In this document: positions 29,486-33,108 of the stretch, piece after piece
How the letters are laid out: each line of letters opens with the position of its first letter
Numbering within the stretch: position 1 is the first letter of the stretch
DNA from: Escherichia coli
Lineage (GTDB): Bacteria; Pseudomonadota; Gammaproteobacteria; Enterobacterales; Enterobacteriaceae
NCBI RefSeq assembly: GCF_003334355.1
Contig: NZ_QOWP01000007.1
Reading direction: 5' to 3' (one strand)
DNA length: 64,000 nt
The notes under the pieces: model-generated
The model's database searches: none
Told to the model about the DNA's origin: nothing
The model's input: the letters and a program-made list of their open reading frames with translations, nothing else
Position numbers and translations under genes: made by a program

Positions 29486-30115
29486 TTAACTCGAGCAGCT
29501 GACTTCCAGCCGTTTACCCCAGTCAGGTGGACGACTGACATAGTCATCATCTCTGTCGCTGAAAGGATTTCGCAACGCCTCATGCAGGCGGTGCAATTCC
29601 ATCATATCACCCTTTTCTGCCACTTCAATCGCCCGTTGCGCCAACCAGTTGCGCAATACCAGAGCTGGGTTAACGCTTTGCATCAGTTGCTGACGCTCAC
29701 TATCGCTAACCTCGTCTTGTTGCAAACGCCCCCGATAACGGGCAAACCAGTCATCAAATGCCGCACGATCAATAAACTCATCACGTAGCGGTGACGCCGC
29801 GCTGTGCTGCTCGGTCAGACTCAGCATGCGGAATGTGCGGGTATAATCGCTGCGCTCTCGCGCCATCAGACTGAATAATTCATTCAGTAGCGCGTTATCC
29901 TCTTTTTGCTCCGTCATGAAGCCCAGTTTCTGCCGCATCCGTTGTCCATAATGCGTCAACAAAACCTGCTGATAGCTGTCTAGGGCCTCATTCAGGGCAT
30001 CTACGGCAACAAATGGCGACAATGTCTGCGCCAGACGCTGTAAATTCCACAACGCGACGGCAGGTTGATTATCAAAGCTGTAACGCCCTTGATGATCCAA
30101 GTGATTACAAATAAA
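29486..30115 (-). pseudogene. selO: selO (ydiU) C-terminal fragment, separated from its N-terminal part by the ISL3 insertion
   Basis: Minus-strand reading ...[25 protein letters not shown]... to the stop at 29486; joins the N-terminal fragment at the TSD. Confidence 0.9.
30108..30115. repeat. Target-site duplication, left copy (CAAATAAA)
   Basis: Identical 8-mer directly abuts both ends of the element. Confidence 0.85.
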
Positions 30116-30139
30116 GGGTATACGGATTTAATGGTTGAT
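30116..30139. repeat. Terminal inverted repeat, low-coordinate end
   Basis: GGGTATACGGATTTAATGGTTGAT; 20/24 identical to the reverse complement of the other end. Confidence 0.8.
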
Positions 30140-30173
30140 GGGGCACCTTTACCCCACCAACCTGATACCATTA

Positions 30174-31451
30174 TCAGATGGTTGATAGATCGACCCCGTA
30201 GTTGAGTTCCTCTGCGAAGTCCGGCAGTCCGTAACCGATGGTTTTCTTGTAGAACGGAGAGACCTTCGCGGTCGGGGCCTTCTTCTTGTGCTTCGTGGTG
30301 TAGAGCATTCGTGCCCGCATCACCTCGAAGGAGTAACCACGTCCTTCACGGTTCTTGTCCTTGGCCAGTCGGTTGATGGACTCCGTGTAAGCGTTGGTGA
30401 CGGGCATGTCCGTCTCGAAGTAGGTCATGATCTCTTCGCGCCAGTTGCCTACAGCCCTGACCAGATCGCTCCAGACTTCCTTCTGGCCCTTCGGGATGGT
30501 GGCTATCCACTCGTCCAGGGCGGCTTCTGCCTGGGGCCGTGTGGTAGCGTCCCAGATGCCGTAGAAACGTTCCTTGTGCTCGTAGGCGGCCAGCAGTTGT
30601 GGGAATGCGCCGGTCCAGGTCTCCATGATGAGGCGTTCCCGGTTTGAGACTTCGTGAGCGCGTTTCAGCAGGATTTTCCGGTCACCCTTGAGGGTTCGGC
30701 TCTGGGAGGGCATCAGCTCCTTCCTGAGGCCCTTGCGCACCTTCTCCAGGGCATCGTTGGCCATGCGCACCACATGGAACTTATCGACCACGATGCGGGC
30801 CTGTGGCAGCACCGCCTTGACCGCTGCTCGGTAGGGATTCCACATGTCCATGCTGACGATCTTGACCTTCTGCCGGTCTTTCATCTTCATCAGGTAGTTG
30901 GTCACCACGTCCTGACGGCGGGTGGCCAGCAGGTCGAGCAGGGTCCTCTCCTCGATGTTGGTCAGGATGCAGCGGTAGCGCTTGTTCAGGTACAACTCGT
31001 CAATGCCGAGAATGCGGGGCGTCTCGAAGCGGTGCCAGCGCCCCAGGAATTCGGCGCGGGCGTTGAAAATGTCGCGTACCGTCTTCTCGTCCAGGCCCGT
31101 GGTATCAGCCACGTAGGCGTAGGGGTGATTGAAGGCTTCCTTCTCCACGTACTCATGCAACCGCAGCGTCATGCGGAAGCCGTCCACCATCTCCGGTAGC
31201 TGGGGCCTGAAGGTGGTCTTGCAGGCCCGGCAGGTGTACCGGCGACGAACTACCCAGAGGGTGACCCGCTTGCCGTGGATGGGCAGGTCACGATAGGGAA
31301 CATCACGCTTGCCGAACCGCACGAACTCACCCTGCACGCCGCACCCCTCGCAGGCTACTGGTGTAGGAGCTTCAAGCCGAAAATGTATGTCTTCATTCTG
31401 CTCATCAGAATCCACCAACTGGTACCCAGGAAGGCTTAACGAATTAATCAT
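30174..31451 (-). CDS. ISL3-family DDE transposase
   Basis: 425 aa; N-terminal CxxC...CxxC zinc finger (CEGCG...CRAC), LGIDE, SMDMWNPY and NAYTESINRLAKDKNREGRGY motifs typical of ISL3 transposases. Confidence 0.9.
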   Translation of the reverse strand: MINSLSLPGYQLVDSDEQNEDIHFRLEAPTPVACEGCGVQGEFVRFGKRDVPYRDLPIHGKRVTLWVVRRRYTCRACKTTFRPQLPEMVDGFRMTLRLHEYVEKEAFNHPYAYVADTTGLDEKTVRDIFNARAEFLGRWHRFETPRILGIDELYLNKRYRCILTNIEERTLLDLLATRRQDVVTNYLMKMKDRQKVKIVSMDMWNPYRAAVKAVLPQARIVVDKFHVVRMANDALEKVRKGLRKELMPSQSRTLKGDRKILLKRAHEVSNRERLIMETWTGAFPQLLAAYEHKERFYGIWDATTRPQAEAALDEWIATIPKGQKEVWSDLVRAVGNWREEIMTYFETDMPVTNAYTESINRLAKDKNREGRGYSFEVMRARMLYTTKHKKKAPTAKVSPFYKKTIGYGLPDFAEELNYGVDLSTI

Positions 31452-31463
31452 CTCCCGCCTTGA

Positions 31464-32498
31464 TCAGAAAAACAGGTAGGTGGCGTAACCGGCAATCATC
31501 GCCATAGCAAAAATGACTGCTAAAAACGCCGCTAAAAGCTTCAGCGTGAACAAAGAGCGCAACAGAATGAGCTCAGGCAGGCTGGCTCCGGCACTGCCGA
31601 TGATCAACGCTAGCACCGTCCCGGCACCCACGCCTTTGGCCATCAGAGCCGCTGCCAGAGGTATGACGGCTTCAGCGCGAATATACAACGGCACGCCGAT
31701 GACAGCGGCAACTGGAATGGCAAAGGGATTATCTGGGCCTGCATACTGCGCCAATAAGTCAGTGGGCATGAAACCATAGATCACGCTGCCAATCGCAATA
31801 CCGATGAGCAGGTAAGGCAACACATCGATAAAGTCCGACCAAGCTTCCCGCCACACACCACTGTACTTCCCTTCTTTCTTAACCGTGACAGTGGGTTGAC
31901 TGTCACAGCATTCGCTAGACGTAGAGACTGTTGTCTTCCTATCAGCCCCGCAAGAAGCCGTCTTCGGAGTGGTGTCGCAGCTGTTGGTGCCGCAACTCGA
32001 TGCGGTCGATGTAGCACTGCACGGGCTTGCTGATGAACTACATCCACTGCTCTCTTGTGTCGCCGTCCGGCGCACATAACGCTCGAAGCCAAGCGTGTGA
32101 AGCAGCCATCCGGCACCTACCGCGACCACCAAAGCGGTGAGCACATAGATAGCAGTAAGTGTCCATCCAAACGTGGCAACCAGCAGGCCGACGACGATAG
32201 GATTCAGCAACGGAGATGAGAAAAGAAACACCATCGTCGGCCCAAAACCGGCCCGTGCCCGAATCAACCCTTTCAACATGGGGATAGTCGAGCAACTACA
32301 GAAGGGCGTTATAGCTCCTAAACCAGCAGCAAGAAAATAGCCTCGCTTCCCACTGGAAGTCAGTAACGCTTCCACCTTGGATGGTGGGATGTGACGTTGA
32401 AGAACTCCGACCAGCAAGCTAATGCCAATGAATAAAACCGATAGCTCGATAGCGAGAAAGGCGAACATGCCTAGAGCGTCTTGGAGTTGAGGTGACAT
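31464..32498 (-). CDS. Permease of the DUF318/ArsP-like family (putative organoarsenical or metalloid efflux permease)
   Basis: 344 aa, two hydrophobic halves joined by a Cys/Ser/Thr-rich linker; TPFCSCS motif in the first half; AGGAG SD; stop 12 bp upstream of the transposase ATG. Confidence 0.7.
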   Translation of the reverse strand: MSPQLQDALGMFAFLAIELSVLFIGISLLVGVLQRHIPPSKVEALLTSSGKRGYFLAAGLGAITPFCSCSTIPMLKGLIRARAGFGPTMVFLFSSPLLNPIVVGLLVATFGWTLTAIYVLTALVVAVGAGWLLHTLGFERYVRRTATQESSGCSSSASPCSATSTASSCGTNSCDTTPKTASCGADRKTTVSTSSECCDSQPTVTVKKEGKYSGVWREAWSDFIDVLPYLLIGIAIGSVIYGFMPTDLLAQYAGPDNPFAIPVAAVIGVPLYIRAEAVIPLAAALMAKGVGAGTVLALIIGSAGASLPELILLRSLFTLKLLAAFLAVIFAMAMIAGYATYLFF

Positions 32499-32541
32499 TC
32501 AATATTACTCCTATATTTCTAGTTTTATCGAAATGATGTAC

Positions 32542-32579
32542 GCAGTCTACTTGCGTTTATCCGACCTGTCAACTATAAT
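32542..32579. promoter_or_regulatory. Divergent overlapping promoters of the regulator and the permease-transposase unit
   Basis: Plus strand TTGCGT-17 bp-TATAAT (32551-32579); minus strand TTGACA (forward 32565-32570) -17 bp- TAGACT (forward 32542-32547); inverted repeat TTTCTAG/CTAGAAA flanks the region. Confidence 0.4.
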
Positions 32580-32609
32580 TCTAGAAACATCGAATTATTG
32601 GGGCGTGCT

Positions 32610-32924
32610 ATGGATCACGAAAAGGTTGCAGCCAGCTTAGCTGAGCTAGGGAATAGTCACCGACTGTCCGTGTTCCGCTTTCTGGTCAAAGCTGGCCATG
32701 ATGGGGCTTCGGTCGGAGATATCCAGAAGGGGCTGGGTATTCCTGCTTCGACGCTATCACATCACCTTGCGCGCATGGCCAAGGTAGGGCTGATCCGGCA
32801 GGAGAAACATAGCCGCACGATTGTCTGTATACCCGAGTATGGGCACCTAGAGAATTTGATCGGTTTCTTACAAGAGGAATGTTGTGCAGGTGTCCGGATT
32901 GCGCATGAACCAGAACCGCTTTGA
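32610..32924 (+). CDS. ArsR/SmtB-family metalloregulator
   Basis: 104 aa from MDHEKVAASLAELGNSHRLSVFRFL...; winged HTH; no ELCVCDL motif but C-terminal Cys73 and vicinal Cys91-Cys92. Confidence 0.8.
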   Translation: MDHEKVAASLAELGNSHRLSVFRFLVKAGHDGASVGDIQKGLGIPASTLSHHLARMAKVGLIRQEKHSRTIVCIPEYGHLENLIGFLQEECCAGVRIAHEPEPL

Positions 32925-33076
32925 CGCTTGCCCAGCTCTCGCTGTCCTCCCTAGTCAGCATCGCTATGAAGACTCAGGCGAAGGTGGAAACAGAAAATTG
33001 GCAGTAGAGTAGGCTGAAGAGGATCAATCAGATAATCCGCTGAGAAAGATTTTCTTCTTTACATCTTTGGCATTTT

Positions 33077-33100
33077 ATCAACCAGAAATTCCGGATACCC
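33077..33100. repeat. Terminal inverted repeat, high-coordinate end
   Basis: Reverse complement is GGGTATCCGGAATTTCTGGTTGAT. Confidence 0.8.
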
Positions 33101-33108
33101 CAAATAAA
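33101..33108. repeat. Target-site duplication, right copy (CAAATAAA)
   Basis: Identical to 30108-30115. Confidence 0.85.

Follow-up and report, generated by a model that had tools for sequence, protein, structure and literature searches.

The window analysed here, a stretch of 64,000 nt from Escherichia coli (contig NZ_QOWP01000007.1, assembly GCF_003334355.1), contains the chromosomal gene selO (ydiU) in two pieces, and the locus raises the question of what the segment between them is, how it came to interrupt selO and what the genes that it carries besides a transposase gene may do. Our results indicate, with very little room for doubt, that the segment is an intact copy of ISPst2, an insertion sequence (IS) of the ISL3 family, which has transposed into selO; no evidence was found that contradicts an ISPst2 insertion as such. 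The analysis followed up a sequence-only reading of the window, which had proposed that an ISL3-type element with a regulator and a permease as cargo transposed into selO in situ. The insertion and the interrupted gene comprise the following features.

30108..30115, no strand: left copy of the target-site duplication, CAAATAAA, 8 bp, single-copy in empty-site alleles
33101..33108, no strand: right copy of the target-site duplication, CAAATAAA, 8 bp, single-copy in empty-site alleles
33101..33915, minus strand: selO 5' fragment, with codons 1-271 native and followed by 24 IS codons up to a stop at 33028 (a 295-aa chimera), from reading of the open reading frames (ORFs)
29486..30115, minus strand: selO 3' fragment, codons ~270-478, cut off from the promoter and start codon

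The 8-mer CAAATAAA occurs at 30108-30115 and again at 33101-33108, bracketing a segment of 2,985 bp (30116-33100), as the sequence-only reading had it and as both inspection of the letters and a script confirmed; the probability that two given 8-mers agree by chance is 4^-8, i.e. ~1.5e-5. Joining position 30115 to 33109, which removes the segment and one 8-mer, restores a selO ORF of 478 codons, again in agreement with that reading, and the protein encoded by the rejoined gene is identical to K-12 SelO at 474 of 478 positions and matches the solved E. coli SelO/YdiU structures over their full length. The rejoined 600-bp flanks find a single-piece match, annotated as selO, in 5,422 of 5,426 complete E. 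coli genomes. An independent test of the empty site comes from strain MLI023K1, with which window positions 9816-30115 align (blastn) at 1-20300 and window positions 33101-53409 at 20293-40600 of the MLI023K1 sequence compared; because the last 8 subject bases of the first alignment are also the first 8 of the second, the 8 bp are single-copy in the uninterrupted MLI023K1 allele. K-12 MG1655 likewise has an intact selO (478 aa) with one CAAATAAA at the insertion point, in agreement with the sequence-only reading, which had the K-12 gene as whole. That reading had also made its proposal depend on the 8-mer being duplicated relative to the empty site, and in both MLI023K1 and K-12 the empty allele holds one 8-mer. 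The MLI023K1 alignment is decisive support for a true target duplication, and the pair of 8-mers is a target-site duplication of textbook form.

Assemblies often go wrong at ISs, and the selO::ISPst2 junction was absent from all 5,426 complete RefSeq E. coli genomes; both points would fit an assembly artefact in which a repeat was collapsed or mis-joined into selO. Against such an artefact stand the perfection of the 8-bp duplication and the exact restoration of the selO frame, as well as the recurrence of the allele in other data: an exact-protein look-up found the chimeric 295-aa SelO ORF on at least 10 Logan contigs from at least 6 runs (SRR3951466, SRR25039421-4, SRR8529021), and one of these contigs, SRR3951466_14 (72.6 kb), matches the window at 100% identity across 12,888 bp, with the whole element included. 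Because independent assemblies hold the same allele, the insertion is real and is shared by a sequenced lineage outside the complete-genome set; misassembly was rejected on the strength of these assemblies, with the same chimeric ORF and junction, and we regard it as vanishingly improbable.

SelO is a protein AMPylase/UMPylase, encoded by a non-essential chromosomal gene. The duplication covers selO codons 270-272, ~15 residues past the DYG motif (residue 256) and further past HGVMNTDN (residue 240), so that the ~207 C-terminal residues of SelO are severed from the promoter and start codon; we infer strongly that SelO function is almost certainly lost. Since selO converges with hemP/ydiE and no further gene follows it in its direction of transcription, the insertion is not expected to have a polar effect. 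The window thus represents a natural selO knockout lineage, which is of minor interest in itself, and an annotation label is due: 'ISPst2 (ISL3 family) inserted in selO; selO pseudogene; 8-bp TSD CAAATAAA', where TSD stands for target-site duplication. The selO insertion site is the one feature specific to this lineage.

ISL3 elements have imperfect terminal inverted repeats of ~15-40 bp beginning with GG, and generate 8-bp target duplications that are usually AT-rich. The window element has each of these properties: its two terminal repeats, described as imperfect and 24 bp long in the sequence-only reading and verified as such by script, agree at 20 of 24 positions, both start with GGGTAT and lose their likeness at base 24, and the duplicated CAAATAAA is AT-rich and 8 bp long. 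It also encodes an ISL3-type DDE transposase, as had been proposed, the 425-aa TnpA scoring 303.8 bits against NCBIfam transpos_ISL3 (an equivalog model, NF033550; cut-off 180) and matching Pfam DDE_Tnp_ISL3 over positions 1-240 of 240 (E 4.8e-67), along with Zn_ribbon_ISL3 and HTH_Tnp_ISL3. The element, with a G+C content of 54.7% (49.4% in the window), holds three intact ORFs, of 425 aa (minus strand), 344 aa (minus strand) and 104 aa (plus strand), and its features are as follows; IRL and IRR denote the left and right inverted repeats.

30116..33100, minus strand (published orientation IRL-arsR-permease-tnpA-IRR): complete ISPst2 isoform, ISL3 family, 2,985 bp, with length, inverted repeats and genes as published
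30116..30139, plus strand: inverted repeat at the transposase end, GGGTATACGGATTTAATGGTTGAT, identical to the published ISPst2 IRR (PMC6305408 Table 3, PMC7643977)
33077..33100, minus strand: inverted repeat at the arsR end, with the reverse complement GGGTATCCGGAATTTCTGGTTGAT identical to the published ISPst2 IRL (from script and the published repeats)
30174..31451, minus strand: tnpA, intact, encoding the 425-aa ISL3-family DDE transposase (NCBIfam NF033550, Pfam)
31452..31463, minus strand: 12-nt spacer from the permease stop codon to the tnpA ATG (TGA TCAAGGCGGGAG ATG), from the sequence read
31464..32498, minus strand: passenger gene 1, encoding a 344-aa ArsP_1/DUF318 (COG0701, 'YraQ') permease (Pfam, NCBIfam)
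32499..32609, no strand: putative divergent control region, 111 bp, from sequence inspection
32610..32924, plus strand: passenger gene 2, encoding a 104-aa winged-helix regulator of the ArsR/SmtB type (Pfam, NCBIfam), whose cysteines are C73, C91 and C92

In its length and in both of its 24-bp inverted repeats, which agree letter for letter, the element corresponds to ISPst2 as published: ISPst2a/b are described as ISL3 elements of 2,985 bp with IRL GGGTATCCGGAATTTCTGGTTGAT, IRR GGGTATACGGATTTAATGGTTGAT, 8-bp direct repeats and two passenger genes, for an ArsR regulator and a COG0701 permease (PMC6305408), and CLJ-ISL3 of Pseudomonas aeruginosa, likewise 2,985 bp long, is the same element and shares both inverted repeats (PMC7643977). 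An inverted repeat consensus for ISPst2, GGGTATMCGGAWTTWMTGGTTGAT, has been given (PMC5830473), and the ISPst2 gene set has been reported to include tnpA, a COG0701 permease ('yraQ') and arsR (PMC8615141), all three of which are present here. The gene order (arsR, the 344-aa COG0701/ArsP_1 permease, tnpA) and the AT-rich 8-bp duplication are also as published, and we observed no structural difference. Published 2,985-bp isoforms with these inverted repeats are 97-99% identical to ISPst2 (PMC5830473, PMC7643977); they include ISPst2a/b on Arthrobacter plasmids and ICEpMERPH, CLJ-ISL3 in P. aeruginosa CLJ1/CLJ3, and copies linked to aadA31 in integrative and conjugative elements (ICEs) of Pasteurellaceae.

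The window element is therefore the already described ISPst2, also published as CLJ-ISL3 and ISPst2a/b, and is a common element, not a new one; its name here rests on published lengths, inverted repeats, gene content and the published 97-99% isoform identities. Neither a novel transposon nor an IS of a family other than ISL3 is compatible with the family scores and the published ISPst2 descriptions, and both were rejected. The novelty implied by the sequence-only reading does not hold, since the length, inverted repeats, 8-bp repeats and three genes are those of published ISPst2 (PMC6305408, PMC7643977, PMC5830473, PMC8615141); that reading had itself forecast that a named IS would remove the novelty and leave the annotation standing, and so it turned out. 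As to wording, ISfinder usage would make the 'transposon' of that reading an IS with passenger genes.

By analogy with other members of its family, the transposase would bind the inverted repeats, and transposition would proceed by a copy-out-paste-in route through a circular intermediate, as is presumed for ISL3 elements, with an 8-bp staggered cut in AT-rich target DNA, whose repair would create the duplication. ISL3 is listed among the IS families with circular intermediates (bioRxiv 10.1101/2023.06.07.543989). What is observed for the element itself are the inverted repeats, the target duplication, the intact transposase and mobility across many replicons.

Copies that cover at least 80% of the element are present in 83 of the 5,426 complete E. 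coli genomes, nearly all of them at least 99% identical to it and about evenly split between chromosomes and plasmids, and such copies are also present in 109 PLSDB plasmids, from Escherichia, Salmonella, Klebsiella, Yersinia, Acinetobacter and others, on IncC, IncHI2, IncX1 and IncF backbones. The window copy is 99.9% identical over its full length (2-3 base differences in 2,985 bp) to the copies in E. coli SC516, E. coli HCP6S3_I1 and Yersinia ruckeri pYR1. A check that the sequence-only reading had suggested, for other copies with the same repeats and 8-bp duplications, gave a positive outcome: GGGTATACGGATTTAATGGTTGAT is identical in all nine other copies examined, and six of the nine have perfect, AT-rich 8-bp duplications, the exceptions being one copy of the pYR1 composite pair, a copy in a two-copy genome and one with a 7-bp duplication. 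ISPst2 is thus a promiscuous IS with passenger genes that moves about, throughout Proteobacteria and as far afield as Arthrobacter, on ICEs and on plasmids of the IncC, IncHI2, IncX1 and IncF types.

Several observations on individual copies and hosts may be recorded. On pYR1, an IncC plasmid, a trimethoprim-resistance dfr gene lies between two ISPst2 copies in direct orientation (positions 1-5985 of the sequence compared), an arrangement that looks like a composite transposon; the pYR1 copy examined has no matching 8-bp repeats. On pMCBF6, a plasmid from an uncultured bacterium, positions 3001-5983 of the sequence compared hold a mosaic ISPst2 variant, 97.1% identical to the window copy and with both inverted repeats identical to those in the window, in which tnpA differs by 6.0% and has a 2-bp deletion (a frameshift) while the cargo genes differ by 0.3-0.5%. 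This mosaic suggests that the tnpA module has recombined among ISL3 relatives. The best 30 E. coli genomes with ISPst2 are mostly from chicken, turkey, duck, pig, sheep, mink and dog, with ~3 from humans; this skew towards animal hosts, despite a human-rich collection, is compatible with selection by farm metals or arsenicals, although clonal sampling or plasmid carriage may confound it.

ISPpu12, an ISL3 element of 3,372 bp known from Pseudomonas putida pWW0 and from the DEH element and common on Enterobacterales plasmids, also has 8-bp duplications, has been seen to flank composite transposons and has an identical IRR; its tnpA module is 93% identical to that of ISPst2 over the first 1,240 bp (window 30116-31355 compared with positions 3501-4740 of the sequence used for the copy on E. 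coli pEC11-2), the similarity ending abruptly inside the 5' end of tnpA. By contrast, its IRL, GGGTAAGCGGATTAAATGGTTGAT, is unlike that of ISPst2, and its cargo of a cadR-like MerR regulator, a CDF cation transporter and lspA is unrelated to the ISPst2 ArsR regulator and ArsP_1 permease. Both elements nonetheless have the same layout, with a divergent metal-type regulator, one or more transporter genes and tnpA last on one strand, so that a single transposase module is combined, in one and the same arrangement, with either of two interchangeable 'metal regulator plus exporter' cassettes. ISPst2 derivatives that carry lnu(G), ISEc89a/b, have been described (PMC8615141, PMC11047700); these and ISProsp1 have an ISPst2 backbone that is ~99.5% identical, with the same inverted repeats and 8-bp duplications, and an insert of ~1.1 kb with lnu(G) in tnpA, whereas the tnpA of the window copy is intact and the element has no resistance gene.

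With respect to the origin of the cargo, a distant search with the cargo region (31452-33076) against plasmids returned ~115 records at 99% identity or more and, below that, only permease fragments of ~70% identity; no free-standing ancestor of the cargo module outside ISPst2 was seen in the plasmid collection. Exact-protein look-up turned up at least 1,000 contigs with the ArsR protein, 280 with the transposase and 14 with the permease allele of the window, which is a rare one.

The 344-aa permease matches Pfam ArsP_1 (formerly DUF318) over residues 5-340, its full length, with an E value of 1.8e-59, consistent with the DUF318/ArsP-like permease of the sequence-only reading. A CSC motif occupies residues 67-69 of the protein, and its central loop, rich in Ser, Thr and Cys, contains cysteines 153, 160, 169, 174, 183, 197 and 198. 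CSC is the most conserved motif across the metal-efflux families SO_0444 and SaoE (bioRxiv 10.1101/2022.07.06.499078), with which the window permease shares it, and the best NCBIfam match is to the SO_0444 Cu/Zn efflux family (133.6 bits); the scores lie far under the family cut-offs, and only membership of the ArsP superfamily (Pfam ArsP_1) and the shared CSC motif link the permease to these families. A sequence search of the PDB with the permease gave no match at E<=0.01, and there is therefore no structural lead to its substrate.

The 104-aa regulator is recognised as an ArsR-type winged-helix protein by Pfam HTH_20 (E 3.7e-13) and HTH_5 (E 5.1e-6), in line with its earlier assignment to ArsR/SmtB, and the identical protein WP_000349485.1 bears the PGAP name 'ArsR/SmtB family transcription factor'. 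The closest solved structure is that of Acidithiobacillus ferrooxidans ArsR (AfArsR; 6J05), in which a CC pair aligns with C91-C92 of the window regulator; these residues are evidently Cys95-Cys96 of the AfArsR arsenite site, in the numbering of PMC11868830. The third AfArsR ligand, Cys102, has no counterpart downstream in the window regulator, and a two-Cys pattern has been reported for SpArsR, which is selective for methylarsenite (MAs(III)) (PMC11868830). Compared with AfArsR/SpArsR-type regulators, the vicinal Cys pair at the end of the C-terminal helix is thus alike, whereas the third Cys of AfArsR is absent here.

The 111 bp between the two divergent passenger genes contain, on the minus strand, a predicted sigma-70-like promoter that would serve the permease (-35 TTGACA, 32572-32567; -10 TAGACT, 32549-32544) and two related dyads, ATTTC-N10-GAAAT (32515-32534) and ATAATTC-N10-GAATTAT (32575-32598), both of which are candidate ArsR operators. 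In a tentative model, the ArsR-type protein would repress the divergent promoter of the ArsP_1-family permease, binding of a thiophilic metal or metalloid at Cys91-Cys92 would release repression, and the permease would then export the same metal or metalloid. The CSC motif of the permease, the alignment of C91-C92 with the AfArsR CC pair and the like layout of the sister element ISPpu12 speak for this model. ArsR-repressed efflux of a soft (thiophilic) metal or metalloid is our best guess as to the cargo function, though for the general idea we would put the chances at roughly even. Several points weigh against it. The permease falls under all of the curated cut-offs (SO_0444, 133.6 of 300 bits; SaoE, 99.3 of 325; 'arsenic efflux protein', 32.9 of 100), and the regulator, at 51.2 bits, is ~4 bits short of the NCBIfam HTH_metalloreg cut-off of 55. 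A promoter and terminator scan of 30000-33300 gave one promoter-like site, compared with a mean of 2.8 in shuffled sequence; that single promoter-like site is well placed upstream of the permease, but alone is not statistically meaningful. The literature, finally, gives the function of the ISPst2 non-transposase genes as unknown (PMC6947025).

The position of tnpA bears on a different account of the regulator. The tnpA gene starts 12 nt past the permease stop codon on the same strand and may share the regulated promoter of the permease, with which it may be co-transcribed: the 12-nt spacer leaves no room for a terminator, nor was a terminator-like site seen in it, it is unchanged in the 97% variant on pMCBF6, and the consensus scan found no promoter-like site upstream of tnpA inside the permease gene. 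On this basis the regulator might mainly be a regulator of transposition, a functional analogue of the TnpR protein of ISPpu12 instead of a gene of benefit to the host, with the promoter of the permease operon doubling as that of tnpA and the ArsR signal inducing transposition. The likeness of ISPpu12, with its 1,240 bp of 93% identical IRR and tnpA module and its divergent cadR-like MerR regulator in the same layout, argues in the same direction, and the TnpR regulator of ISPpu12 reportedly regulates ISL3 transposition, to go by the title, as cited, of a 2010 paper by Christie-Oleza et al. (J Bacteriol 192:1423, cited in PMC4133298). The argument is nevertheless one of analogy, between regulators of unrelated families (ArsR in ISPst2, MerR in ISPpu12), and such a role would complement soft-metal efflux rather than exclude it; as the main role of the regulator we consider it possible, if clearly less probable than efflux, whereas it is plausible that the ArsR protein controls ISPst2 transposition besides the permease. 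A more specific arrangement, in which tnpA would be the last gene of an ArsR-controlled permease operon and the effector would switch on export and transposition together, is a tentative proposal that we hold somewhat more doubtful again. If it were true, a thiophilic metal or metalloid acting as the effector, perhaps an organoarsenical, would couple export and transposition, much as in the MerR-type TnpR control reported for ISPpu12; this would offer a mechanism for stress-induced bursts of the IS, among them the increase from 6 to 40 copies that has been reported for P. aeruginosa CLJ3.

Narrower than soft-metal efflux in general, and less likely than it, is the idea that the cargo is an organoarsenical resistance module, made up of a methylarsenite- or roxarsone-type sensor and an ArsP-like exporter and selected by arsenical feed additives in livestock. 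The vicinal Cys pair of the regulator, kept without the third Cys as in the MAs(III)-selective SpArsR (PMC11868830), and the membership of the permease in Pfam ArsP_1 are in keeping with such a module, as is the host range, the listed E. coli hosts of ISPst2 being mostly chicken, turkey, pig, duck, mink and dog, with few human. However, clonal sampling confounds the host skew, as does the presence of the element on resistance plasmids, and related isoforms also occur in Antarctic Arthrobacter, in Pseudomonas and in Pasteurellaceae; the permease, moreover, reaches 32.9 bits where 'arsenic efflux protein' asks for 100, and scores higher against the Cu/Zn-type SO_0444 family. We thus consider an organoarsenical-specific function unlikely, and efflux of a soft metal or metalloid in general remains the preferred account of the cargo. 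The role of the conserved ArsR-permease cargo and the control of transposition are a question for every ISPst2 copy and are not specific to the selO locus.

A further promoter, directed outwards and lying within and beside IRL (TTTACA, 33058-33063; TATCAA, 33076-33081), has been proposed to drive aadA31 (PMC5830473). It was not detected by the promoter scan of 30000-33300, and its 12-nt spacer is atypical; in the window (33058-33081, plus strand) it would face the selO 5' stub and ydiV, and would yield antisense RNA only.

Outside ISPst2 and a terminal IS1 the window is colinear with MLI023K1, at 99.3-99.97% identity and with single-base gaps only (one at ~45253). Ordinary E. coli RNA elements lie in their expected places: rydB (4384-4444), RprA (10048-10155), STnc540 (37824-37982), the Phe leader (41822-41946) and ES036 (58890-58932). 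The IS1 copy begins at 63821 (GGTGATGCTGCCAACTTACTGATTTAGTGTATGATGG...), occupies 63821-64000, runs past the end of the window and interrupts chbC; the colinearity with MLI023K1 ends exactly at 63821, and IS1 also lies within or beside chbC in a small number of further E. coli genomes.

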